A DNA stretch of 64,000 bases from Candidatus Binatia bacterium (GTDB taxonomy: Bacteria; Desulfobacterota; Binatia; UBA9968): positions 25,548 to 89,547 of the forward strand of contig JBHHYU010000001.1 of the NCBI GenBank assembly GCA_046757725.1, given 5' to 3'. Shown here one piece after another: positions 11,340-63,592 of this stretch (position 1 is the first letter of the stretch; every line of letters starts with the position of its first letter). The translations under genes and the position numbers were made by a program. The notes under the pieces were generated by a model. The model did not search any database and had not been told where the DNA came from. It worked only from the letters and a program-made list of their open reading frames with translations.

Positions 11340-12113
11340 CTACTTCCGGCCCTTGGATTCCTGCCGACCCGAAAGAGGACCTTTCTCTTGCCCCCTTTTT
11401 TTTCGGTCTCCCTCAGGAATGATAAGCAGACGACGGTAAGCACCCGTGCCTAGGCTTCGGGTTGTTAGCCACGGGTCATCTTGGAGGGCAACATGAATTA
11501 TCCGGCGGTCGGCCGCAGTTAAAGCATTTACGGTAACAGTCTTTCTTTGCCTCTTGGCCTTTTCTCCAAAACGCAAGGCCATGTCCTCCAGGTTTTTTCG
11601 TTTGCGCGCGCGATAATTTCCCGTATCAATAACCAACTGCGGCCCTTCTCTCCCTTGCCCTTCACCTGTAATGCGCATCACGAGGTATTGCAAGGCCTCA
11701 AGGGTTTGCCCTTTACGCCCAATTAGAAGGCTACCACAGTCTCCGTGAATATCCAGACTAACCTCCTCCGCTGTTTCTCCCGGCTTAACGTTGACGGTAG
11801 ATGGAACACCCATAAGCCTGAGAATCTCTGCCAGGACCTCTCTTCCCTTTTGGCCCAACGCGGCTGCCTCCTCATCCGTTATCCGCTTCTCCTCGGGGAG
11901 TTGCTTCCCCACAGGTTCTTCATCCGCCAATAATGACCTTCTGAGAGATGCTCGGATGCGTGCCTTCTGGGACCCGAATCCCAAAATGCCCTTCCTTCCC
12001 TCGGTCAGGATATCCACAGTCACTTTATCACGCTCGACGCCTAACACCTTGAGAGCGTTGTCTATCGCTTTATCGATGGTTTCACTCTCGGTTTCCACAG
12101 ATTCCATTTCCAT
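11340..12113 (-). CDS. jag: Jag/SpoIIIJ-associated RNA-binding protein (Jag_N, KH and R3H domains)
   Basis: 257-aa ORF directly downstream of yidC. Carries Jag_N (IDKAIDNALKVLGV), KH-like (GSLLIGRKGQTLEALQYL) and R3H (RRIIHVALQ) segments. Confidence 0.8.
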   Translation of the reverse strand: MEMESVETESETIDKAIDNALKVLGVERDKVTVDILTEGRKGILGFGSQKARIRASLRRSLLADEEPVGKQLPEEKRITDEEAAALGQKGREVLAEILRLMGVPSTVNVKPGETAEEVSLDIHGDCGSLLIGRKGQTLEALQYLVMRITGEGQGREGPQLVIDTGNYRARKRKNLEDMALRFGEKAKRQRKTVTVNALTAADRRIIHVALQDDPWLTTRSLGTGAYRRLLIIPEGDRKKRGQEKGPLSGRQESKGRK

Positions 12114-12141
12114 GGATCAAACACCTCCAGAAGAATCCGTC

Positions 12142-13767
12142 CTACTGCTCTTTCCGATTGATCAGATATTGTTGCGCAATACTGAGGATGTTATTCATCA
12201 GCCAGTAGATGGTCAAACCAGCCGGGAATGTGACGAACATGGCTGTAAAAATCACCGGCATCATAAGCATCATACGCCTCTGGTTGGGGTCCCCGGCGCT
12301 GGGCGTCATCCATTGCTGGACGAACATGCTGACCCCCATAAGAATAACGAGGATGGGAATGCCCACGTGATAACCGAAAAGGTTTAATGGTAAAGACTCC
12401 CAATCGGGGCGGGAGAGGTCTTGAATCCACATGAAAGGGGCATGGCGGAGCTCAATGGGCGTAAGCAGTGCTTTATAAAGACCGAGGAAGACCGGGAACT
12501 GAAATAGCATCGGTAGGCATCCCCCTAATGGATTGACCTTGTTGCGCCGATAGAGCTCCATGATCTCTTTATTCAATTTTTCTTTGTCGTCTTTGAACCT
12601 TTCCTTTATCCGCTCCATTTGAGGTTGCAGCTTCTGCATTCGTTTCATCGAGACATAGCTCTTACGTGTCAAAGGTGCGGTGAGAAGCTTGATAATCAAG
12701 GTGAGAAGAATTATGTCGATACCATAGCTGCTTGTGAACTGATGGGAAAAACGCAGCACATAGAGGAACGGAATCGAGATAAAGGCAAACCAGCCGAAAT
12801 TAATGGACTGATCCAATCCCTTGTCCATAGCCTTCAGGACATCCAGGTCCTTTGGGCCAATGAAGAGTATGTAGCGAGCTTTATCCGCAGCAATCTCTTC
12901 AGATTGGCTCTCGAGGGCCAGAAGCAAGGCGGGTCCTTTTTGTTTAACCGTAACCTTCTTGCCTGGCCGGTTCTCGGGTAAGAGGGCAAAGAGAAAATAG
13001 GTATAACCAAACCCGGCCCAGGAAATAGGGCCATTTAGCTCTTTGCCCTCCTTAAGGGCTTTTGGAGCTTCGCGGTGTATTTCACTGTCAATGAGGGCTA
13101 GGAATCCCTCAAACGGTGCTCCCTTTGTGGACCCTTTGTCGTTTGCCTCGGAAGTCAACAGTAGGCTTGGAGGTTGTCCTTTAGTTCCTTCGGCGGAAAC
13201 CTCCAGACCAATAGAGTAACCTGAACCGACAAATGTAAACTTCTTGGTGAGTGTCACTCCGAAGGGAGATCGGGCGTGAAACAGCAGAGTCCCTTTCGCA
13301 TTTCCAGTAAGCCTTAGTGGACCCCCTTGAATTTTATACATCAGACCATTGTCATTGAACGGCTTGGGACGCTGTATCTGTAAACCTAAGGGATAGGGTA
13401 CCCCGGGTGCAGTAGAGATCATTTCAAAGGCGGGGCTCTCCCTGTCCACAGAGCGTCGGTAATGCTTAAGAATGAAACTCTTAAGGCGCCCCCCCCGATT
13501 GGTCAAGACCGCTATGTATTGGTCTGTCTCCACTTTGACCTCTTCTTCTAGCTGTTCCTGAAGAGTAGGGGCGGTCGCAAGTTCCTTGTCAGGTTCCCTG
13601 TACGGGGCAGGCTTCGGTTTCAATGGAGGCGCGACGGCCTTCTTAATTGTTTTTTGCTTCTCTCGCCTCGGTTGGGGAGCGGTACCGTAATGACGTCCCA
13701 CCCACGCTTGGTAGACGATTAGAATCAGAAGAGAAAGAATGACGGCCATCAGTGTACGTTTTTCCAT
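12142..13767 (-). CDS. yidC: Membrane protein insertase YidC
   Basis: 541-aa ORF with an N-terminal TM, a large periplasmic domain, and a C-terminal 60-kDa IMP core (KMQKLQPQMERIKERFKDDKEKLNKEIMELYRRNKVNPLGGCLP). Confidence 0.92.
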   Translation of the reverse strand: MEKRTLMAVILSLLILIVYQAWVGRHYGTAPQPRREKQKTIKKAVAPPLKPKPAPYREPDKELATAPTLQEQLEEEVKVETDQYIAVLTNRGGRLKSFILKHYRRSVDRESPAFEMISTAPGVPYPLGLQIQRPKPFNDNGLMYKIQGGPLRLTGNAKGTLLFHARSPFGVTLTKKFTFVGSGYSIGLEVSAEGTKGQPPSLLLTSEANDKGSTKGAPFEGFLALIDSEIHREAPKALKEGKELNGPISWAGFGYTYFLFALLPENRPGKKVTVKQKGPALLLALESQSEEIAADKARYILFIGPKDLDVLKAMDKGLDQSINFGWFAFISIPFLYVLRFSHQFTSSYGIDIILLTLIIKLLTAPLTRKSYVSMKRMQKLQPQMERIKERFKDDKEKLNKEIMELYRRNKVNPLGGCLPMLFQFPVFLGLYKALLTPIELRHAPFMWIQDLSRPDWESLPLNLFGYHVGIPILVILMGVSMFVQQWMTPSAGDPNQRRMMLMMPVIFTAMFVTFPAGLTIYWLMNNILSIAQQYLINRKEQ

Positions 13768-13789
13768 AGATCAAAAGTCTTCTAATACC

Positions 13790-14164
13790 TTATTTTCGTA
13801 ATGCGTGGAAAATGTGCCAAATTCGAGGTCTGCGGGAACCCCCTGACCAGAGCCGGGCTCGCCTAGTCTGTTGGATCAAAGGTAGGGAGCCAATCTTTCT
13901 TTTTGAGGGTAGGTCTATGGTGGAGAGGGGCTTTTCAATCGCCTGAGGAACCGGATCATAGCCCCCGGGATTCGCCGGGTGACATTGAATGATCCGATGG
14001 AAGCCGAGCTGTATTCCTCTCTTGATCCCGTGTTGTTCTATGGCCTCCAGGGCGTAAGCCGAGCAGCTAGGAAAAAAGCGGCAGGACCGGGGCAGGCAAG
14101 GAGACAAGAAGCGACGGTATCCTACAAGCGTGAAAATAATGACTCTCTGGCACAACCCAACCAC
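13790..14164 (-). CDS. yidD: Membrane protein insertion efficiency factor YidD (start uncertain)
   Basis: The conserved core YRRFLSPCLPRSCRFFPSCSAYALEAIEQHGIKRG..HRIIQCHPANPGGYDPVP lies in ORF 13790..14290. The first 42 codons of that ORF overlap rnpA. A GTG at 14164 overlaps the rnpA TAG stop by 1 nt and is the most economical start. Confidence 0.7.
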   Translation of the reverse strand: MVGLCQRVIIFTLVGYRRFLSPCLPRSCRFFPSCSAYALEAIEQHGIKRGIQLGFHRIIQCHPANPGGYDPVPQAIEKPLSTIDLPSKRKIGSLPLIQQTRRARLWSGGSRRPRIWHIFHALRK

Positions 14165-14523
14165 TAACCTTGCCGACTCCCTCGATTGGCCAAGACTTTC
14201 CTGAGTTCCCCTGTCAATTCCTCGAAGGAGAGCGCTCCTGACCCTTTTTTTGCGATTATCACGAAATCTCGTCGCGGAGACAACTCGCAACGATAGCGAC
14301 GAAAGAACTCCCTCAAAAACCTCTTGAGACGGTTGCGAACAACGGCCCGCCCCACCCTTGCGCTAACCGTGACTCCCAGTCGATTTTCTCCCTTGTCATT
14401 GGTTTTGCTGAGGACAACAAAATGCGAAGTATACGCCTTTTTCCCTCCTCGTGACAGGTTCAAAAACTCAGAGCGGCGCGTAAGACGGGCTTGCTTTGCA
14501 AACCTTTCCCCGTCTACAGTCAA
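14164..14523 (-). CDS. rnpA: Ribonuclease P protein component
   Basis: 119-aa basic ORF between rpmH and yidD. Contains the RNR-type motif GRAVVRNRLKRFLRE. Confidence 0.85.
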   Translation of the reverse strand: MTVDGERFAKQARLTRRSEFLNLSRGGKKAYTSHFVVLSKTNDKGENRLGVTVSARVGRAVVRNRLKRFLREFFRRYRCELSPRRDFVIIAKKGSGALSFEELTGELRKVLANRGSRQG

Positions 14524-14540
14524 TGGACCACCATTCTAGT

Positions 14541-14702
14541 CTAGGAGCGAGCTCGTTTCGGCGGCACTGTGACGGTCAACTTTTTACGACCCTTCGCTCG
14601 TCTCCGTCTAATGACATTGCGGCCCCCCGGTGTTTCCATCCTGGTGAGGAAACCATGGGTCCTTTTTCGTTTTATATTACTTGGCTGATAAGTTCTTTTC
14701 AT
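14541..14702 (-). CDS. rpmH: 50S ribosomal protein L34
   Basis: Not in the ORF track (53 aa). Hand translation of the minus strand gives [53 protein letters not shown], the canonical L34 N-terminus, in the canonical position upstream of rnpA. Confidence 0.9.
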
Positions 14703-14760
14703 AAAAGCAAAATCGCCCCCTCACCTTGTATTTCAACCACAGAGCGGTGCTCTTGTCAAT

Positions 14761-15768
14761 TTACAGAATTTCAGCCTTTAGAGACCGCTGCATCAGATGA
14801 CGCGCGGCTTCTAACGGTTCCTTGCCTTCATGGAGAACAAGATACATCTGCTCTACGATAGGCATTTCTACCCCAAGCCGGAGAGCAAGGAGATGCACGG
14901 ACCTAGTATTTCTTATTCCCTCTGCTACCATGTGCATCCCGTCCAGAACCTCGTCGATGTTTTTCCCCTGTGCGATCTGTAGGCCGACTTGACGGTTCCG
15001 GCTCAATTCTCCCGTACAGGTCAGAATCAAATCTCCCAAACCGGGCAATCCGGAAAGGGTAAGTGGATTTCCTCCCATCCTGACTGCTAGACGCGTCATC
15101 TCAGCGAGTCCACGAGTGATCAATCCTGCGCGAGCATTGTAACCTAAACCCAACCCATCGGTGATACCCGCAGTAATGGCAATCACGTTTTTGACTACGC
15201 CGCCCATCTGTACCCCAATCACGTCCTTGGAAGTATAGACTCTAAGAGTCTCCGTGCTAAGGGTCTTCTGGATATCCTGCCCCACCTGCTCACAGGGAGC
15301 TGCCACGGTAATAGCGGCCGGCAAACCTTGTGCTACTTCGAAGGCAAAGGTCGGACCGGATAAAAAGGCGGTTCTCTCTTTCTGCGAATCACCAAAGATA
15401 TCGCCCAGTACCTCCCCCATGGTCATCAAGCTTCCCTCTTCGATGCCCTTTGTTCCACACACTATGATAACGTGAGAGGCCAGGTAAGAAAGGGTCTTTT
15501 GTAAAACTTCGCGTACCCCATGAGACGGCACGGCGCAAAAGAGGAGTTCTTTGCCGGAAACGGCTTCTTTTAACGCACAGGTAACCTTAAGTGAGTGAGG
15601 GAGAGGGATACCAGGAAGATAGGAGGAATTTATCCCTTTCTCTTGAATCTGCCGACAGCACTCTGCTCCACGACACCAGAGAGTTACCTGGTGGCCCTTT
15701 TCACATAGCAGCTTGGCCAGGGCGGTTCCCCATCCCCCGGCTCCTATAACTGCTATTGCTTTTCCCAT
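14761..15768 (-). CDS. gpsA: NAD(P)H-dependent glycerol-3-phosphate dehydrogenase
   Basis: 335-aa ORF. Rossmann N-terminus IAVIGAGGWGTALA and the GpsA C-terminal domain (GLGDLILTCTG.LSRNR). Confidence 0.9.
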   Translation of the reverse strand: MGKAIAVIGAGGWGTALAKLLCEKGHQVTLWCRGAECCRQIQEKGINSSYLPGIPLPHSLKVTCALKEAVSGKELLFCAVPSHGVREVLQKTLSYLASHVIIVCGTKGIEEGSLMTMGEVLGDIFGDSQKERTAFLSGPTFAFEVAQGLPAAITVAAPCEQVGQDIQKTLSTETLRVYTSKDVIGVQMGGVVKNVIAITAGITDGLGLGYNARAGLITRGLAEMTRLAVRMGGNPLTLSGLPGLGDLILTCTGELSRNRQVGLQIAQGKNIDEVLDGMHMVAEGIRNTRSVHLLALRLGVEMPIVEQMYLVLHEGKEPLEAARHLMQRSLKAEIL

Positions 15769-15837
15769 GGTCTTTGTGATTGGCTAAGTCCCACTCGATA
15801 TTTTTGTTGCTCATCAACCGATCGGTGACAGGCGCAT

Positions 15838-18279
15838 TTATTCCTCCTCTTCCTTTTCCGCCAATCGTGCCAAGGAAACCACTTTCTCCCCGTCTTCGAG
15901 GTCAATGAGACGGACTCCCTGCGTATTACGTCCAATAATCCGAATATCCTTGACTCTCAAGCGAATAATCTTGCCCCTATTGGTTACCAGCATCAGTTGG
16001 TCATCTTCAGTCGCTTGCCGGACACCGACTACCGGCCCGGTCCTTTCGGTGGTTTTCATGGTAATGATTCCTTTACCGCCACGGGATTGAAGACGATACT
16101 CTTCCATGTCGGTGCGTTTGCCATAGCCGTTTTCCGCTACCGTTAGAATATTGGCGCTCGGGCTTAAGATCTCCATGCTTACCACTGCATCGCCCTGGTC
16201 CAGTCGCATCCCCACGACTCCGTGCGTCCCTCGCCCCGTAGCCCGAACCTGCCCCTCCTTGAAATGGACGGACTGGCCATTCAGGCTGGAGAGAATAATC
16301 TCCTGATTTCCATCCGTCAGACGAACACCGATCACCTCGTCTCCTGCCTCAAGTCCTATAGCACGCGTCCCGGCTGAGCGGGGATTGGCATGGGCCATAA
16401 GTTCGGTTTTCTTGATAGCCCCATGTTTCGTAGCGAAGATCACAAAACGCCCTGCCAGGAACTCACGGACAGAGAGAAAGGCAGAGACCTTTTCTCCGTC
16501 ATCCAAGTGCAGGAGGTTGACGATGGGTTTTCCCCTGGCCGCTCTGCCCGCCTGGGGAAGTTCATGGACCTTGAGCCAGTAGACTTTGCCTGTCGTGGTA
16601 AAAAAGAGGATGTAAGAGTGAGTGGAAGCGACAAAGAGATATTCAACAAAATCCTCGTCCCGTGTTGTGGCCCCAATCTTCCCCTTTCCACCTCGCCGCT
16701 GTGCGCGGTAGAGTGTTACCGGATTACGCTTAATATATCCCTCGTGGGAGATGGTAACGACCATATCTTCTTCGACGATGAGATCCTCAATGGATATCTC
16801 TTCAGAGCGATTCTTGATCACGGTTCGTCTTGGGTCACCGTAGCGCTCCTTAATCTCCTTCAGCTCTTGGACTATGAGTCCGTAGATTTCCTTCTCATCG
16901 GCGAGAATCCCGCGCAGTTTCACAATGAGTTGAGAAACCTCTTTGTGCTCCTGTAGGACCTTGTTACGCTCCAGTCCCGTCAACCTCTGCAATCGCATCT
17001 CCAAGATCGCTTGGGCCTGGGCCTCCGACAAACCGAGGCTCTCCATTAGCCCATCTTTGGCCATTTTGGGGTCCTTGGAGCTGCGAATGAGGGCAATCAC
17101 TGCGTCCAGATGGTCGAGGGCGATCCTCAACCCTTCGAGAATATGCAGGCGCGCCTCGGCTTTGCGTAGCTCATAGGCGGTACGGCGCGTGACGACCTCT
17201 TTACGATGGTCTAGAAATGCTTTAAGGGCCACCCTCAGGTTGAGAAGCTTGGGCCGGCCTTCCACGATGGCAAGCATATTGACACCGAAGGATTCCTGTA
17301 GGGAAGTATGCTTATAGAGCTGGTTGATCACCACCTCAGCCGCCGCATCCCGTTTGAGCTCGATGACGATACGCATCCCTTCCCGGTCGGATTCATCACG
17401 CAGATCACCTACACCATCAATTTTTTTTTCTTGAACCAGCCTGGCAATTTGCTCAATGAGGCGAACTTTGTTCACCAGATAGGGGATCTCACTAATAATA
17501 ATTTGTTCTCTACCGGTACGTTTAACAGTTTCGGTGTACGCCTTACCCCTCATTTGGATGATGCCACGGCCTTCTGCATAGGCCTGGCCGATGGTCTCTT
17601 TACCGTGGATAAAACCGCCCGTGGGAAAGTCGGGGCCAGGAATATATTTCATTAGTTCTTTGACAGAGATATCCGGCTTTTTCACCATGGCTGCCAATCC
17701 GTCTATCACTTCTCCCAGGTTATGCGGGGGGATATTAGTAGCCATTCCCACAGCAATACCGGAGGTGCCGTTGATTAATAAATTGGGTATGCGGGAAGGG
17801 AGGACGGTGGGCTCTTTCAGAGAATCATCATAGTTGGGAACAAAATCAACAGTTTCCTTTTCTATGTCTGCCAAGATCTCGCCGGACAGTTGCGTCATGC
17901 GGATCTCCGTGTACCTCATGGCGGCGGGCGGATCACCATCAACGGAGCCGAAGTTCCCCTGTCCATCCACAAGGGGGTGCCGCATGGAAAAATCTTGGGC
18001 CATACGTACGATGGTGTCGTAAGCCGCTACGTCACCATGTGGATGATATTTACCTATGACGTCACCGACCACCCGGGCAGACTTTTTATAGGGGCTGTTC
18101 CAGACGTTTCCCATATCGTACATAGCATAAAGAACGCGCCGGTGAACCGGCTTTAATCCATCACGTACATCCGGGAGCGCCCGACCAATGATCACGCTCA
18201 TTGCGTAGTCCATATAGGACTGACGCATCTCGTCTTCTATGTAAACTGGGACTTTTTGCTGTTTCAGCGTGGCTTCCAT
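15838..18279 (-). CDS. gyrA: DNA gyrase subunit A
   Basis: 813-aa [32 protein letters not shown], the active-site AAMRYTE, a C-terminal beta-pinwheel repeat region, and an acidic tail. Confidence 0.97.
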
Positions 18280-18351
18280 GAATCGTTAAATCCGTTCAAC
18301 CCGCTCAGACTATTCTGAACGCGTTGAATTTTTTGAGCTTTTAATCTTAGG

Positions 18352-20784
<2,433 letters not shown>

Positions 20785-22143: not shown

Positions 22144-23877
22144 CTATGTTCGGCTCCAGCGCCAAAAAAAACCTAACCCGAGACCGAGAAAGCACAGAAG
22201 CGGCAACAGGCTGATCAGCCTGCCCGACCATAAGAATTCTCCCAGGTTAAAAGAGTTCCAGTGGTCCGGAATGGTGCCTCCCGGCTGATAAACGCGGCGA
22301 AATGGCGATTCATAAATACCAATCGGATTCGCTGACACCGGCCCTTCAAGAAGTTCCTCACCGATGTGTTCTCCAGACGGGTGGGAAAGAATCAATCGTA
22401 TCGTCTGCCCTCGAAGCAAGGGTAAAAGGTATTGGCCCATCGGATTTGGAATCCCTTGCGGAAAGCGCGGATCGACGGCCGTCGCTAGAAGCATGGTCAA
22501 TGCTGAAAACATGGCCAAGACGAGTGTGGCGCGGAAGCACTTCTGAAAAACAGGCGTCAGCGAGAGACATAGAAACGGTAAAGCGGGAATTAAAAAGCGC
22601 GGGCCCATGGCCCACCCGCCATCCCACGAGTTATACGAGGAATTCGTAAACAGGAATCCGAGGAAGATTGCGATCCACAGCACAATCTCCGCCCGCTTCT
22701 GCTGCTCGCTTGCCGTTAGCCAAATACCTAAACCCGAGAGGAAAAGCACTGGAGAAGTGAAAAACAAACCGCGGTAGCCGGAAAAGAGCAAAGCAACCAT
22801 AATTTCAAATCGGGGCCGACCAAACATACCTAAACTGAGCCCTTGATGCAGCATCCATTCGCCTTGGTAAGCGTAAGAAATCGTCACCGGGCTGCCGAAA
22901 CACAATAAATTATACCATCCGAGCACGGCTACAGGCGGTATCGCCCCCGCAATAAAAGAAAGGACCTTCCAGCGAGGTCGAGTTGCCCAGAAGACGTAAA
23001 GCGTAAAGCAGGCTACAGTGATAATGGAGGTATATTGCATGAGTAAGATAGTCCCACTGACGACACCCGCGACAAAAAGGATAAGTGCGGGACGAACGGA
23101 TGCGATCCCACTGTTTTTGTTAACCAAAAGGAGTAAATAAACAAAAAGAGATAGTACGGCGACAAGATCATGCTCAATTAGCATCGTGGAATACGGCAGC
23201 ATGAGTGTTCCCAAGCCAAACGTTAATGTTGAGGCAATATGAGCCCAGGCGGGAGATGAAGGAAAAAGCTGAAGCGAGGTCCGGTAAAAGATAACACCTC
23301 CAAGGGCCGCGATGAGGGATACCGAGAAGACGGTCGTGAAGTAGACATTCATAGTCATTGGCCACCAGTGATCCGGATGGATACCCAGGAGACGGTCAAC
23401 GTTATAGACGATAAAATAAGCCGGCACTGCGCTAAGAACGGCTCCGGGAGGTTTATTTGGGTAAATATGGCTGCCAAATCGCGATACATCTCCAGTATTC
23501 CAAGCCGTGCTGATCTGCTCAAGCGGAAGATCTGCGAGCGCAGATGGAGGGAACGTTAGCCGGCGGAGCGCCAGCCTCCCTTCCCGGTCGGGGCCAGCGG
23601 TGTAAAGCGAAAAATTCTCAATTTCTAACGTACCCTCTTCAACAATGGAGCGAACTTGGTCAAATCTGCCGTTTACGCCCCACCCTCCGCCTTGATAGAA
23701 ATAGGCATAGGTGAGGAGAAGCATGAAGAAGATCGTCAGATCTATGCGTATTTTCCTCACCTCTTTTAAATGATGAAACTTTTTGCCGGGACAGGTAGAG
23801 GTCGAAACTACTTTCGAACGACCTGGCGGCAGTTCACCTACGTTGGAAACTACAATCCCAGGGCCTTTGTTTTGCAA
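22144..23877 (-). CDS. Large polytopic membrane protein, GT-C-like (ArnT/PMT-type glycosyltransferase-like); function and start uncertain
   Basis: 577-aa ORF with more than 10 predicted TM helices and an early extracytoplasmic loop (YQGGGWGVNGRFDQ..GDVSRFGSHIYPNKPPG). The track start is a TTG, so the true start may be further downstream. Confidence 0.45.
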   Translation of the reverse strand: MQNKGPGIVVSNVGELPPGRSKVVSTSTCPGKKFHHLKEVRKIRIDLTIFFMLLLTYAYFYQGGGWGVNGRFDQVRSIVEEGTLEIENFSLYTAGPDREGRLALRRLTFPPSALADLPLEQISTAWNTGDVSRFGSHIYPNKPPGAVLSAVPAYFIVYNVDRLLGIHPDHWWPMTMNVYFTTVFSVSLIAALGGVIFYRTSLQLFPSSPAWAHIASTLTFGLGTLMLPYSTMLIEHDLVAVLSLFVYLLLLVNKNSGIASVRPALILFVAGVVSGTILLMQYTSIITVACFTLYVFWATRPRWKVLSFIAGAIPPVAVLGWYNLLCFGSPVTISYAYQGEWMLHQGLSLGMFGRPRFEIMVALLFSGYRGLFFTSPVLFLSGLGIWLTASEQQKRAEIVLWIAIFLGFLFTNSSYNSWDGGWAMGPRFLIPALPFLCLSLTPVFQKCFRATLVLAMFSALTMLLATAVDPRFPQGIPNPMGQYLLPLLRGQTIRLILSHPSGEHIGEELLEGPVSANPIGIYESPFRRVYQPGGTIPDHWNSFNLGEFLWSGRLISLLPLLCFLGLGLGFFWRWSRT

Positions 23878-24066
23878 AGAAAGTATCCGATATGACGAAT
23901 GATGTCAAAATAATGGAGACACTTTGGCAAACGGCTCCGACCGGGTAGTTTAGGGTGCTGGTGACGGATTCGGGACTGCGGAAGGCGGGCTGATCGGTGA
24001 CCGCCGTAGAAACCCTGAATTTCTGATACTCAACCTCACAAACCATTTGCTGCTATCATTTAACTC

Positions 24067-24433
24067 GGCTCTACCGTAAAAAGAGTGCTGTTCCAGTTAA
24101 ACACAGGGGGCCCGCTCCTCAGTGAGAGCCGATAGACCTGTACTTCTCTGCCCCCTAAGCTGTTAACCCATTAGGCCCATTTCCCTCAAGTCTCTTTAGG
24201 GTCGGCCGTCTCCCTCTCCTCGGAGCCTACCCCCTGCGCCGTGCACCCATGTATCCGGTTCCGAGGGAGGAGACCTGGAGGCCTGGGGCACGGGGAGGTG
24301 GAGGTTTAAGGCAGGCCCAGGCCGTTGGAGAGCTCAGCCGAAGGGGACGGGAGGGTGGCCGTCGAGGCACAGGACTTATTGACTCAGGCCGGAAGGTTTT
24401 TTCCTGAGGAACCACACTAATTAACGGTGAGCC
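24067..24433 (+). mobile_element. Non-autonomous MITE-like element, copy A (367 bp)
   Basis: Ends are GGCTCTACCGTAAA / TTAACGGTGAGCC (imperfect TIR). A perfect 9-bp direct duplication ATTTAACTC lies at 24058-24066 and 24434-24442. Homologous to 34937-35281 in reverse orientation. No ORF is conserved between the copies. Confidence 0.85.
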
Positions 24434-24442
24434 ATTTAACTC

Positions 24443-24469
24443 TTGACAAGCATTTTACCTCGTTATAGT
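24443..24469 (+). promoter_or_regulatory. Sigma70-like promoter candidate for the riboswitch-tonB transcript
   Basis: TTGACA (24443-24448) and TATAGT (24464-24469) with a short 15-nt spacer, about 20 nt upstream of the riboswitch P1. Confidence 0.35.
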
Positions 24470-24491
24470 TTCTTTTCACTTTGATTCAGTG

Positions 24492-24675
24492 CTCTAAGGC
24501 GTCATAGGGAAGTCCGGTGCAATTCCGGCGCGGTCCCGCCACTGTAATTGGGTAAGTTCTCCTGCGCTTCAAAGCCACTGTCCTGAGATGAGTTAAAAGG
24601 ATGGGAAGGCCGCAGGAAGTTGGAGGGTTGAATTAAACTCCTTCCAGACCCATAAGCCAGGAGACCTGCCTAGAG
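24492..24675 (+). promoter_or_regulatory. Cobalamin (B12) riboswitch 1
   Basis: Core GGGAAGTCCGGTGCAATTCCGGCGCGGTCCCGCCACTGT, internal GCCACTG...GGGAAGGC, and 3' AAGCCAGGAGACCTGCC. The closing helix CTCTAAGGC / GCCTAGAG is present. Located upstream of tonB. Confidence 0.9.
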
Positions 24676-24901
24676 CCAAATAACCCGACTTTCCGAAGGA
24701 GAGAGAAAGGTTCACCTTGTCCGCTCGGTCCTCAAATCCAATCCCTTGTTATTACGGTGAGGTCGAAACTTCCGGGATTTGGTGTTTGCAATTTTGACCC
24801 CTTCCCTCTCGTTTTCGGCATAGTCCTGAACCCTTTTTGAGTGTTGCTAGAAAAGCCTGGTGGCGCCGGGGCGATTTTTTTTGGTACAGGGAGCCGCACA
24901 C

Positions 24902-25846
24902 ATGAGATTGTCTCCATTCCTTGGCATCTCCGTTTTACTGCACGCTTTAATTCTTACGTTGCCATCCTGGTCTTCTCAGTCAGGGCAAGGGCATGAGATC
25001 ATCCCTGTGGCTTTGTTCATGACAGAGCATGCTGGAGATCATGGGCTGATCCCGGTGGGCAACAAAATCGGTTTGGATGTATCTGAACCACTGTTACCGG
25101 GCAGGCCAGAGCAAACTGTACGCGAAGAGCCGCGAAAACTTAAAAAGGCACGATCGACTATGAGCGACACGCTTAAGTTCCAGAATCGCCCGGTTAAACA
25201 GCAGACGCCCGTGAAGAGACGAGTGAAAAAATATCAAACCACAAGGGTTTTGGCGGGTCGGAGTTTTGATAGACTCGGCCCCGCCGCAAGCATCGCGACG
25301 AAAAGTCGGGCCCTTGGCCAAGAGAAGGACATTCAGAGGCCAAAAGTCCCTGCGGAGGTTGTAAGCCGGCGGGGCTTATCTGAGTGGTACATCAACGAAG
25401 CTGGTACGGAAGATCCGCTGTTAGGGGAGTTGACTAAAGGTGAGACTGTGGCGCCCAAAGATGGCGGCCGGGAAGGGGTGGAATCCGGGAAAAACAACCT
25501 ACCCTTGGCAGATCAAGCTCAGTCGGCGATGGATCCTATCTCGGAAAGTCGGCAGAAAGGAGGTCTTACACAGGCGGGTTATGAGTATTGGTTCAATCCG
25601 GAATATCCTAAAAAGGCAAGAAAAGAAGGTTGGGAGGGAACTACCGTGCTCAGGGTCTTAGTCGATGAACAGGGAAACTCTAGAAGGATTCAGATAACGC
25701 GAAGCTCCGGTTTCGAATCTCTCGATCAGGTGGCAGTGAAAGCAGTCAAGCGCTGGCATTTTCATCCGGCCCAACGAGGGGCCAAACCGGTGCCGAGCTG
25801 GGTCAAAATCCCGATCGTCTTTCGTCTCAACGGTGGCAACATGTAA
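24902..25846 (+). CDS. tonB: TonB family energy transducer
   Basis: N-terminal anchor MRLSPFLGISVLLHALILTL and the C-terminal TonB_C domain (YPKKARKEGWEGTTVLRVLVDEQGN..IPIVFRL). ATG 24902 is preferred over the track start 24860 because a GGGAG lies 8 nt upstream. Confidence 0.8.
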   Translation: MRLSPFLGISVLLHALILTLPSWSSQSGQGHEIIPVALFMTEHAGDHGLIPVGNKIGLDVSEPLLPGRPEQTVREEPRKLKKARSTMSDTLKFQNRPVKQQTPVKRRVKKYQTTRVLAGRSFDRLGPAASIATKSRALGQEKDIQRPKVPAEVVSRRGLSEWYINEAGTEDPLLGELTKGETVAPKDGGREGVESGKNNLPLADQAQSAMDPISESRQKGGLTQAGYEYWFNPEYPKKARKEGWEGTTVLRVLVDEQGNSRRIQITRSSGFESLDQVAVKAVKRWHFHPAQRGAKPVPSWVKIPIVFRLNGGNM

Positions 25847-25868
25847 ATAGGCAAGACTCATATCTATT

Positions 25869-26034
25869 GGCTGCAGATCGGATTCGAGGGAAAGGGGTGA
25901 AATTCCCCTGCTGCCCCGCAACTGTGATGGCCACGAAAGCCGCAGGTATCAGCCACTGTCCTGAGCCAAGTCAAAGGATGGGAAGGCGCGGCGAGTAGGT
26001 TAAAGCCTAAGCCAGGAGACCTGTCCATTCTGCC
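25869..26034 (+). promoter_or_regulatory. Cobalamin (B12) riboswitch 2
   Basis: GGGAAAGGGGTGAAATTCCCCTGCTGCCCCGCAACTGT core, AGCCACTGTCCTGAG...GGATGGGAAGGC, and 3' AAGCCAGGAGACCTGTCC. Ends about 30 nt before the btuB SD/ATG. Confidence 0.9.
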
Positions 26035-26068
26035 TTAACGATCCCCCTTCGTGGGAGAGGAGGTTCTC

Positions 26069-34079: not shown

Positions 34080-34859
34080 TCACATCATAACCGCTCCACC
34101 ATCCACGTTAATCGCTTGTCCCGTAATCCCCTTTGCCGACTCGGCGGCCAAGGTCAGGGTCAGGTCCGCAACTTCCTCAGGTGAGATCAACCGCTTCTGA
34201 GGTGAGGTACCCTTAAAAAAGTTGAGCACTTTTTCTGGATCCTTACCTGTTTTTTCGGCCATCGACTTCGCGTTATTCAGTGTTAAGGGAGTATCAACAT
34301 AGCCCGGGCACACGGCATTGACCGTAACACCGGATCTTGCCATCTCGATGGCCAGGGCACGTGTCAGCCCCAAGACGGCGTGCTTTGATGTCGTATATGC
34401 GGAGATATGGGAGTAAGCAACTTTGGCGACCGTTGAAGCGATGTTAATAATCCTTCCCCAACCCGATGCGATCATTGCTGGAAGAAAGGCTCTGCAGCAG
34501 TAGTAAGTCCCCGTTAGATTGACCTTCAAAACTTCTTCCCAAAGTCGATCATCCATCTGCAAGAAGGCTACAGCCGGAGCAATTCCGGCATTATTGATTA
34601 AAACCTGGACAGGTCCAAGACGGGCTTTGATCTCATGCTCCAGTTTTTCGACCTGGTTTTTTTTGGTAACATCGCAGGGCAAGGCAAGGGCGTCAGACCC
34701 AACATTGCGGATCTCCTCAACTACCGCCTCAAGGCTCTCCTGAGTTCGTCCCGTAACGACCACGCGGGAACCCTGAGCAGCAAAAGCAAGGGCAATGGAA
34801 CGCCCGATGCCTCGGCTGCCTCCTGTCACCAAGACGATCTTGCCATTACGCTCTTTCAT
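34080..34859 (-). CDS. Short-chain dehydrogenase/reductase (3-hydroxyacyl-CoA/3-oxoacyl reductase-like)
   Basis: 259-aa ORF with TGGSRGIGRS cofactor motif, NNAG, and catalytic YTTSK. Confidence 0.88.
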   Translation of the reverse strand: MKERNGKIVLVTGGSRGIGRSIALAFAAQGSRVVVTGRTQESLEAVVEEIRNVGSDALALPCDVTKKNQVEKLEHEIKARLGPVQVLINNAGIAPAVAFLQMDDRLWEEVLKVNLTGTYYCCRAFLPAMIASGWGRIINIASTVAKVAYSHISAYTTSKHAVLGLTRALAIEMARSGVTVNAVCPGYVDTPLTLNNAKSMAEKTGKDPEKVLNFFKGTSPQKRLISPEEVADLTLTLAAESAKGITGQAINVDGGAVMM

Positions 34860-34898: not shown

Positions 34899-34927
34899 AG
34901 AATATGGCCGCTATGCAGCCGCGTCAA
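34899..34927 (-). promoter_or_regulatory. Sigma70-like promoter candidate for the SDR-ECH-ACAD-ACAD operon
   Basis: On the minus strand: TTGACG (34927-34922), 17-nt spacer, TATTCT (34904-34899), about 40 nt upstream of the SDR ATG, which has a GAGGAAA SD. Confidence 0.4.
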
Positions 34928-34936
34928 GTCCTGGGA

Positions 34937-35281
34937 GGCTCTCCGTTAAAGAGAGTGGTTCCTCAGGAGAAAACCTTCCGGCCTGAGTCGATAAGTCTGT
35001 GCCTCGACGGCCACCCTCCCGTCCCCTTTGGGTGAGCTCTCTGACAGCTTGGGCCTACCTCCAACCTCCACGTCCCCGTGCCCCAGTCCTGCAGGTTTCC
35101 TCCCTCGGAACCGGATGCATGGGTGCACGGTGCGGGGGTAGGCTCCGAAGAAAGGGAGACGTCAAACTGTGATCGTGCTCGGTGTCGAACACGAAACACG
35201 AACACGAGCCACGAAATGGGCTCCCACTGAGGAGCGGGCTCCCTGCGCCTCTGGAGCACCACATTTGTTAACGGTAGAGCC
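34937..35281 (-). mobile_element. Non-autonomous MITE-like element, copy B (345 bp, inverted relative to copy A)
   Basis: Read on the minus strand it starts GGCTCTACCGTTAA and ends TTAACGGAGAGCC. A perfect 9-bp duplication (TCCCAGGAC on the minus strand = GTCCTGGGA on plus) lies at 34928-34936 and 35282-35290. About 9 in 10 positions are identical to copy A over the 3' 226 nt by hand alignment. Confidence 0.85.
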
Positions 35282-35296
35282 GTCCTGGGATGCCTG

Positions 35297-35325
35297 TTGA
35301 TCGCTTTCGCAACTCTCTTTATAAT
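35297..35325 (+). promoter_or_regulatory. Sigma70-like promoter candidate for the M48/TPR protease gene
   Basis: TTGATC (35297-35302), 17-nt spacer, TATAAT (35320-35325). An AGGAGG SD and GTG 35342 follow. Confidence 0.4.
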
Positions 35326-36793: not shown

Positions 36794-37168
36794 TTACCCT
36801 TGGTTACAGATAGTCGAAAAAGAATAAGCCCTGCCGCCAGCGGATTTTATTAGTTCGCGCTCCCGTTTCAGCAGAAATTCTCGCATGTAATCAGGATCAA
36901 AGCCTAGGAAGTCGCAGATATTGGTGAAAGAGAAGAGCCAGTCCGTACTTTTATCACCAATCCACTGAATAGCATTCTGGTAGAGATCACTACACGAGCT
37001 ACTATTGCTTACCCGATGTTTCTCAAGGCACTCCACGGCGTCCTTAAGAATAGCGATCATAAGCCTTTTCTCCCCCTCTAGTTGGCGAGATAACCCGCTA
37101 TTCCCATAGAATTGGGAAGGCAAATAGGCGTCTGGTTCTAGAATCTTTGCTAGAAAATCATCGTACAT
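36794..37168 (-). CDS. Hypothetical protein (orphan, 124 aa)
   Basis: Intact ORF in a locally AT-rich patch. I could recognise no family. Confidence 0.5.
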   Translation of the reverse strand: MYDDFLAKILEPDAYLPSQFYGNSGLSRQLEGEKRLMIAILKDAVECLEKHRVSNSSSCSDLYQNAIQWIGDKSTDWLFSFTNICDFLGFDPDYMREFLLKRERELIKSAGGRAYSFSTICNQG

Positions 37169-63002: not shown

Positions 63003-63330
63003 GATCGGTAAAACCTTCGACGGTATCTATGTCTCCCCGTAGTTTTCCAAAACTACCCACTAGGGGAACGGCTTGCCGCTCCTGATGGCCAGTCTGGCAT
63101 CGCGATACCATCCTGGTCGACTAACCACAGGGGGGGGCAGCGCAAGCACCGTACCCATATCACATGGGAACGGGTTGTCAAGGAGAGCAGATCTCCTAAC
63201 GAGTCGCGAAGCGGTGAGCTGGCTACGGTCGATGCGGTTCCCCAACTTCGCCGCCGACTTCCGACTGCTTTCACGGAAAATGAATCTCGATAATCTTGCT
63301 TTCTCCACAGGAATACACCGGCCGAGATGA

Positions 63331-63345
63331 AGCGCCAAGCGTGTG
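63331..63345. repeat. Direct repeat core AGCGCCAAGCGTGTG, copy 2
   Basis: Exact 15-mer, 343 bp downstream of copy 1, within the same GC-rich non-coding stretch. Confidence 0.6.
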
Positions 63346-63592
63346 CAGCCTGCGTAAATTTTTCGATAAGGTTTTTGGGGACCAGTGGTTAGTTGCCTTG
63401 GGGGCACCGGAGAACTTCCGCGGGCGAAGCACAGGCACGATCGGGCCAGAGGTCACCGATCAAATCTATTGAAACAGTTGCATTTTCGCGTTATGAGAGG
63501 ACAACTTGGCAAGAGGGCCGGGTGTGTATTGACCAGCGGAGGGTAGAAAAGTAACCCTAGAAGAAGACTCTCGCGGCTACGGAGGTGTCCAA

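Follow-up and report, generated by a model that had tools for sequence, protein, structure and literature searches.

An undescribed family of non-coding mobile elements (MITEs) from uncultured Binatia found next to TTGAC motifs that resemble -35 boxes

The insertion sites described for most bacterial insertion sequences (ISs) and MITEs are AT-rich DNA, TA, REP sequences or positions behind terminators. For IS903, the target motif has been given as WTTYA-N9-TRAAW with a 9-bp duplication (PMC2577343, Table 1), and elements of the IS903 group have ends of the form GGCTTTGTTGCACAAA, likewise accompanied by 9-bp duplications (PMC6382973, Table 2). MITEAba12 is a non-coding MITE with 9-bp duplications, which are kept in only 40% of its copies (PMC6382973). 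ISPst2-like elements of the ISL3 family have the ends GGGTATCCGGAATTT and GGGTATACGGATTT, the classical ISL3 duplication being 8 bp, and recombination between copies has been described for ISL3 elements with lost or mismatched duplications (PMC7643977). MITEs associated with promoters, namely Correia of Neisseria, ERIC and MITEAba12, are small, non-coding and palindromic, lie mostly just upstream of genes and can alter neighbouring transcription (PMC10969869).

The two copies described here, copy A and copy B, lie in a 64,000-nt stretch of DNA from a Candidatus Binatia bacterium (hereafter the window, meaning the whole stretch that was analysed) and represent an undescribed family of non-coding mobile elements of the MITE kind from uncultured Binatia. 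Members of this family adjoin a TTGAC -35 box through their 9-bp duplication far more often than expected by chance, and the association is statistically strong.

Structure of the two copies and of the family

Copy A occupies positions 24067-24433 of the window on the forward strand (367 bp; nhmmer E=1e-126), is non-coding and carries what is termed here a type I internal module. It starts with GGCTCTACCGTAAA and ends with TTAACGGTGAGCC, its left terminal inverted repeat (24067-24087, +) reading GGCTCTACCGTAAAAAGAGTG and its right one (24413-24433, +) reading ...CACACTAATTAACGGTGAGCC. On the same strand the 9-mer ATTTAACTC stands directly to its left (24058-24066) and again directly to its right (24434-24442), the two agreeing at 9/9 positions in a register that was confirmed. 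With the insert and one 9-mer removed, the uninterrupted target would read ...GCTGCTATC-ATTTAACTC-TTGACAAG.... Copy B is located at 34937-35281 on the reverse strand (345 bp; nhmmer E=9e-111); it is also non-coding and has a type II internal module, which it has in common with one related locus (L010). Read in the orientation of the element, its duplication is TCCCAGGAC, found on the right side at 34928-34936 and on the left side at 35282-35290, both on the minus strand. Terminal inverted repeats beginning GGCTCT... are present in both copies, and the chance of a 9/9 match at a fixed position is ~4e-6 per copy. A profile of the element searched with nhmmer identified these as the only two copies in the window.

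The interior of copy A is made up of two palindromic domains, whose coordinates on the forward strand are approximate (~24101-24239 for domain 1 and ~24257-24413 for domain 2). In domain 1, conserved arms (GCGCAGGGGGCCCGCTCC... and ...GGAGC..ACCCCCTGCGC) enclose a replaceable module, found at ~24131-24205 in copy A, and it is this module that is of type I in copy A and of type II in copy B. Domain 2 is the best-conserved part of the family and contains the nearly invariant block GACTCAGGCCGGAAGGTTTTyTCCTGAGGAACCAC. Full-length identity between copies A and B is only 78.5%, because ~70 nt of the 5' half form a different module in each.

A sequence-only reading of this DNA had previously given the coordinates of the two copies, their terminal repeats and their perfect 9-bp duplications, and all of these were confirmed in the sequence. 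The 32-nt run that it had reported as identical between copies A and B is present, and its estimate that about 9 in 10 positions agree in the 3' part holds, with a repeat finder returning arms of 142 nt (89%) and 61 nt (90%) over the 3' ~200 nt. Its description of the copies as MITE-like also stands, on the evidence of the terminal inverted repeats, the 9/9 duplications and the lack of a shared ORF: as it had noted, no ORF is common to copies A and B, in which indels break the frames, and the sole ORF of at least 60 aa in copy A is antisense to those of copy B. The ORFs called in related copies were short, differed in extent and were without a Pfam domain. That the element is non-autonomous agrees with the failure to recognise a transposase in the window, where flanking genes and ORFs that could not be named by eye gave no match to a transposase family in Pfam, and where the remaining ORFs, judged by eye only, were of housekeeping or metabolic appearance. 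Rfam 15 returned cobalamin riboswitches only, and no match fell on the element, either in the window or at 10 related loci.

The same reading had predicted a larger family, and 11 further independent loci with unrelated flanks were recovered from public metagenome and MAG contigs belonging to several different assemblies and samples. A metagenome scan with a 25-nt internal motif yielded four contigs with related elements. A profile of a spurious ORF running through the conserved 3' part was also searched against protein collections and yielded 8 proteins and then 7 more, the first 8 leading to contigs L009-L016 and the later round to L017; copies were located on the contigs by nhmmer profile or by sequence. 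Copies A and B bring the number of independent loci to 13, of which 8 have full-length copies. All of the extra loci are on short metagenome contigs, and loci are therefore counted across samples and not within one genome. The protein leading to L009 is labelled Candidatus Binatia and the GyrB of the window is 86% identical to that of Candidatus Binatia MAGs; so far, the family has been seen only in genomes of Candidatus Binatia type and in metagenomes. The proteins of the window are singletons at 90% identity and are encoded on an NCBI contig of 110 kb. Contigs assembled from short reads of the same strain (two runs) stop within both copies (40-45 nt into copy B, 75 nt into copy A), which is expected because multi-copy repeats break assemblies. 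Neighbouring-gene look-ups gave only occupied sites of the same strain, and no empty-site allele was seen among them.

Full copies measure 335-404 bp (~335-405), or 533 bp with a nested insert, and fall within the MITE size range of ~50-800 bp. All of them have GGCTCT...AAAAGTGTGG at both ends. Alignment of 7 full copies gave a terminal repeat of the form GGCTCT-N5-7-AAAAGTGTGG, in which the outer GGCTCT and the inner AAAAGtGTGG are conserved and the middle 5-7 nt are variable. The interior of the family consists of two large palindromes, both imperfect, and one of two unrelated hairpin modules forms the apex of the first. The A-type module recurs in L004, L011, L012, L013 and L017 (5 loci) and the B-type module in L010, which supports the earlier proposal that copies A and B descend from sources that had already diverged. 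The second palindrome has variants with a 39-nt hairpin insert (L013, L014) or a 31-nt deletion (L012), and it also hosts a nested insertion of a different, 180-nt MITE (L003, L004/L009). L016 is the most diverged copy and keeps the second palindrome (domain 2) only. Some internal blocks, 20-35 nt long, hardly vary between copies whose overall difference is 15-25%. A recognisable duplication is found in 3 of the 8 full-length copies (A 9/9, B 9/9, L012 8/9), with degraded ones in L004 (6/9) and L011 (5/9) when compared by hand and none in L010, L013 and L017. This loss may stem from the age of the copies and from recombination among them, the latter being known for ISL3 copies (PMC7643977).

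Promoter-like sites next to the duplications

Copy A is situated between a divergent gene for a 577-aa membrane protein and a B12 uptake operon, the order of which is riboswitch, TonB-like protein, second riboswitch, TonB-dependent receptor, periplasmic binding protein, FecCD permease and ABC ATPase (tonB-btuB-btuFCD). The first cobalamin riboswitch (24472-24687, +; Rfam, 86.1 bits) starts 30 nt after the right-hand duplication of copy A; it is not part of the element and forms the leader of the tonB-like gene (24860-25846, +; TonB_C domain). The second cobalamin riboswitch is found within the operon at 25863-26042. Directly abutting the duplication is a promoter-like site (24443-24469, +) with TTGACA at 24443-24448, a 15-nt spacer and TATAGT at 24464-24469, whose -10 element scores 5/6 and which ends 2 nt before the riboswitch match. 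This site was missed by the automatic scan because of its 15-nt spacer.

Copy B is situated between an operon for a short-chain dehydrogenase, an enoyl-CoA hydratase and an acyl-CoA dehydrogenase and a divergent M48 peptidase gene. Here too a promoter-like site, identified by consensus scan, abuts the duplication (34899-34927, -; TTGACG, 17-nt spacer, TATTCT), and the short-chain dehydrogenase gene (34080-34859) lies downstream of it. A divergent promoter-like site (35297-35325, +; TTGATC, 17-nt spacer, TATAAT; 10/12) begins 6 nt beyond the duplication on the other side and faces the M48 peptidase gene, and copy B is therefore placed between two back-to-back promoters. The TTGAC -35 box that abuts the duplication in both copies and in most of their relatives is absent from the sequence-only reading.

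Across the family, TTGA(C/T) was found at exactly the tenth base outward from the element (+10), which is the first base after the 9-bp duplication, in 9 of 21 flanks and at 9 of the 13 loci, on the right flank in A, B, L003, L005, L012, L015 and L017 and on the left flank in L004 and L011. With the background taken from the same contigs, the binomial probability of TTGA at exactly +10 was P=2.5e-14 (8/19 flanks), or P=5e-16 when L017 is included (9/21), and that of TTGAC was P=9e-19 (8/21). TTGA(C/T) never occurred more than once at any other offset in the 19 flanks. At L013, TTGACA is present at +12, beside a poly-A tract. Because only internal sequence was used to find the copies, the flanks had not been selected for TTGAC. 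Among the nine positive flanks the motif is strictly TTGAC in 8, and its sixth base varies (A, G, C, T). It is also one-sided, the opposite flank being without a mirrored GTCAA, and the duplicated 9-mers have no consensus among themselves. The skew of 7:2 towards the right end of the element is not significant (two-sided p=0.18). Another three ORFs, which leave the element through its right end, have [L/V]-D at the codons matching nTT-GAY; P0014, one of the three, belongs to the L017 locus, whose DNA was confirmed to contain TTGACA.

TTGAC is the core of the sigma-70 -35 box. Hexamers resembling a -10 box are enriched 15-19 nt downstream of the motifs (sum 31 vs 23 +/- 2.4 in shuffles, p ~0.001), several of the matches being weak (3-4/6), and the genes called or ORFs listed for these loci are downstream of the motifs and co-oriented with them. 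At L013, the adjacent promoter-like site lies upstream of a cobalamin riboswitch that resembles the second one of the window. By these sequence features the TTGAC motifs next to the copies look like real -35 boxes, and the -10-like hexamers and co-oriented genes that follow them would place the copies at the exact upstream edge of promoters.

Proposed mobilisation and alternative readings

The copies are probably a non-autonomous DNA transposon, a MITE moved in trans by a transposase that reads the bases flanking its cuts, of which the copies at promoter edges are the survivors. A DDE transposase supplied in trans would move the element by 9-bp staggered cuts, through either a cut-and-paste or a copy-paste route; the duplication and the inverted repeats are the basis on which the DDE-type chemistry and the 9-bp cuts are inferred. 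Such a transposase may favour target sites with TTGAC beside the staggered cut, in analogy to IS903. Insertions at TTGAC motifs inside genes would be disruptive and would be purged by selection, and with TTGAC being the -35 core this would leave surviving copies at the upstream edges of promoters. In a survivor, 9 nt would separate the end of the element from the -35 hexamer; the core promoter would remain whole, and the DNA originally upstream of it would have been moved ~350 bp away. Copy A would in this way have replaced all the sequence that lay upstream of the duplication abutting the -35 box in the riboswitch-controlled tonB-btuB-btuFCD promoter, and copy B would have separated two divergent promoters.

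Mobilisation in trans is only inferred, because the collections searched yielded no autonomous element that has these ends. These comprised two scans of genome collections with exact patterns of two internal motifs (species-representative genomes, in which the lineage is absent or masked), a BLAST search of 72,556 plasmids with copy B as query and two scans of viral contigs. No IS5-family transposase gene could be linked to the element. Several observations count against this explanation: the collection scans and the look-ups of neighbouring genes gave no empty-site allele, only 3 of the 8 full-length copies have a recognisable duplication, TTGAC stands on one side only while the IS903 motif is palindromic, and the ends are also like those of ISL3, which classically has 8-bp duplications. 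The internal blocks are moreover nearly invariant and the middle of the terminal repeat is variable, which would be unusual if only the ends mattered. The conserved palindromic interior is most simply taken as inherited element architecture, including nested smaller MITEs.

A reading in which the repeats of the window are immobile, arising from segmental duplication or chance similarity with the 9-mers as part of a duplicated block, was tested here; of these, the sequence-only reading had named the segmental duplication. There are indeed only two copies in the window, but each has a different pair of 9-mers and the flanks beyond these are unrelated and do not align, so the copies are not a segmental duplication; eleven further loci also have unrelated flanks and related copies occur in several assemblies and samples. 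The unrelated flanks and the pattern of TTGAC at +10 refute this reading, which is regarded as extremely improbable. It is conceivable, if unlikely, that the element is instead a domesticated and portable upstream promoter module, which spreads by transposition and is kept because its conserved interior acts in cis. Such an interior could serve as an insulator, a factor-binding platform, a bent or UP-like region or a source of structured RNA, and selection at the level of the host would then explain both the adjacency to promoters and the conserved core. The near-invariance of blocks of 20-35 nt in copies that are 15-25% different, beside a variable middle of the terminal repeat, would fit such a module, as would the fact that the variable parts are replaceable hairpins (the type I and II modules, the 39-nt insert of L013 and L014 and the 31-nt deletion of L012) and that L016 retains domain 2 alone, with 3 compensatory pair changes. 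The orientation skew of 7:2 can be added to this, along with an A/T-rich CTTTTTAA located 10-17 nt inside the right end, which together with the 9-nt duplication would put it at ~-52 to -62 from the transcription start, at about the position of an UP element. However, consensus folding and pair counting gave covariation that is at most weak, and a structured RNA is not claimed: the covariation term was unfavourable (+4.6 and +1.6 kcal/mol), L016 is the only sequence to contribute compensatory pairs (3), and one-sided changes are about evenly wobble-compatible and pair-breaking, as neutral transitions would give. The same stems are palindromes in the DNA and would also be explained by nested repeats, and Rfam gave no match. 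When single copies were folded, the outcome was uninformative (z=-0.55 for copy A and z=-3.5 for copy B). The possibility that the element contains an outward promoter or a terminator was also considered and set aside, no promoter-like or terminator-like site being called inside either window copy. The occurrence of TTGAC at the left end in two loci further shows that a fixed geometry is not required, and selection alone fails to explain the single exact offset.

The one-sided motif and its fixed offset could also be produced if TTGAC were not itself read and the transpososome were recruited by promoter-bound sigma-70/RNA polymerase, inserting upstream of the -35 box at a constant distance from it. 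Comparable guidance to promoters is known for some eukaryotic elements, and the -10-like hexamers, the co-oriented genes downstream and an orientation skew in the direction expected of an asymmetric tether would all agree with it. We consider this very unlikely. Since genuine -35 boxes depart from the consensus at one or two positions, a tether would give a looser motif than the strict TTGAC of 8 of the 9 positive flanks with its variable sixth base; several of the -10 matches are weak (3-4/6) and both orientations occur. Direct reading of the flanking bases has a precedent in IS903, and we are not aware of one in bacteria for the tethering of integration to promoters. The broader proposition that either integration is coupled to promoter-bound sigma-70/RNA polymerase or the modular core of ~160 nt is a cis-acting or RNA module delivered to promoter edges is improbable. 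Were the core functional in this sense, the element would be a mobile promoter accessory rewiring operons such as that for B12 uptake.

Relation to known element families

This is an undescribed MITE family, and its habit of abutting TTGAC -35 boxes is notable without being categorically new. The Binatia elements occupy the position immediately upstream of -35 boxes systematically, with the duplication set against TTGAC. If the preference is mechanistic, it would amount to a simple bacterial 'safe haven' strategy, which also strips promoters of their native upstream sequence; the element could then be used as a natural promoter marker in an uncultured phylum and its transposase as a site-biased integration tool. 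For annotation, the family explains two unannotated gaps of ~350 bp as well as assembly breaks in Binatia genomes, and it flags possible regulatory changes at the B12 uptake operon.

The promoter-associated Correia, ERIC and MITEAba12 elements come with outward promoters of their own or with IHF sites, and their targets are TA or AT-rich DNA. The Binatia family is unlike them in that no promoter-like site is present inside the window copies and in that an existing -35 box stands at a fixed distance of 9 nt. MITEAba12 is further distinguished by its length, the Binatia element being three times longer, G+C-rich and built of nested palindromes. Elements of the IS200/IS605 group (e.g. ISDra2, target TTGAT) insert next to a specific pentanucleotide that resembles TTGAC/TTGAT, and a derivative of this group was considered because of the TTGAT-like motif. 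Such elements have no terminal inverted repeats and no duplication and abut their motif directly, and a derivative is excluded by the inverted repeats and by the 9-bp duplication that lies between the Binatia element and the motif.

A typical ISL3 end is GGCTCTT according to ISfinder, and the Binatia terminal repeat resembles those of this family in a start of the form GG(C/G)T(C/A)T..CCG; compared by hand, the left end of L011 (GGGTCTCCGTTA) matches the ISPst2-like end at 9/12 positions. ISL3 differs in its 8-bp duplication, as against 9/9 in copies A and B and 8/9 in L012, and a Binatia duplication of 8 bp is unlikely, as it would need two chance matches (~1 in 16). Further candidate families with 9-bp duplications are ISLre2, ISKra4, IS1 and IS256. 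The IS903 group (IS5 family; IS903, ISAba12, MITEAba12) has the same 9-bp duplication as the Binatia family, and its ISAba12-type ends start with GGCT and continue A-rich, which the Binatia ends partly resemble. By hand comparison the left end of L012, GGCTCTAGTGCAAAAA, agrees with GGCTTTGTTGCACAAA at 12/16 positions and the consensus at ~10/16, and the same values (12/16 for the left end of L012 and 10/16 for the consensus) are obtained by hand against the expected IS903-group form GGCTTTGTTG(C/A)A(C/T)AAA. The 9-bp duplication is free in sequence and the target would be set by 5 nt on the flanks, an architecture like that tabulated for IS903. The Binatia motif is TTGAC and on one side only, whereas that of IS903 is TRAAW and palindromic. 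At the level of sequence comparison, the 9-bp duplication and the apparently flank-defined target point to the IS903 group as a candidate parent family, with ends that resemble those of the IS903 group and of ISL3 about equally.

Cobalamin riboswitches and other genes of the window

One gene cluster of the window carries two cobalamin riboswitches in tandem, the first (24472-24687) located ahead of a TonB-like gene and the second (25863-26042) ahead of a TonB-dependent receptor, with a binding-protein, permease and ATPase set being found downstream. An independent member of the main element family, identified on metagenome contig L013 (275-678), is also promoter-adjacent, where it adjoins the TTGACA promoter of a cobalamin riboswitch (L013:17-233, minus strand) that is more similar to the second riboswitch of the window than to the first. 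The main element therefore adjoins B12-riboswitch promoters at 2 of the 13 independent loci, an association which, on these two cases alone, seems to be above chance.

Four ORFs of the window had no Pfam match at the thresholds applied, namely those at 1002-1964, 22144-23877, 36794-37168 and 63060-63407 (each on the minus strand). The product of the ORF at 22144-23877 (577 aa), which is divergent from copy A of the main element, looks like a multi-pass membrane protein when judged by eye. There is also a jag-yidC-yidD cluster adjoining gpsA, gyrA and gyrB (11340-20781). Clusters of this type frequently occur near the replication origin.

Copy B, contig breaks and a diverged relative

Two promoter-like sites are arranged back-to-back around copy B, at 34899-34927 (minus strand) and 35297-35325 (plus strand). 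Their present spacing is ~360 bp, with copy B in between, whereas just 15 nt would lie between the two -35 boxes if the site is reconstructed as empty.

Logan short-read contigs of the same strain (SRR29324609 and SRR29324611) stop within the main element at both the copy A and copy B loci, retaining only parts of it (L001:1-45, L002:1-45, L007:5865-5941 and L008:5560-5636). The 32-nt run common to copies A and B does not account for these break points, which implies more copies of the element in those samples.

The relative found on contig L016 (5666-5861) is diverged, comprising the second palindromic domain only, with no recognisable GGCTCT ends and with different flanks. Given these features, it may be that this domain is a separate unit, older than the composite element.

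A second MITE family flanked by TA

A further MITE family of ~180 nt, unrelated to the main element, was observed on five of the metagenome contigs and is absent from the window. It is nested within the main element on L004 (2260-2439) and L009 (1-107), lies at a TA within the left repeat of the main element on L014 (316-495), and is solo, outside the main element, on L011 (1075-1212), while L003 (220-395 and 1748-1834) has both a nested and a solo occurrence. The ends of this MITE read (T)A-GCCCGCAATTCTC...GAGAAATGCGGGC-TA, and these TA flanks suggest an IS630/Tc1-like origin.
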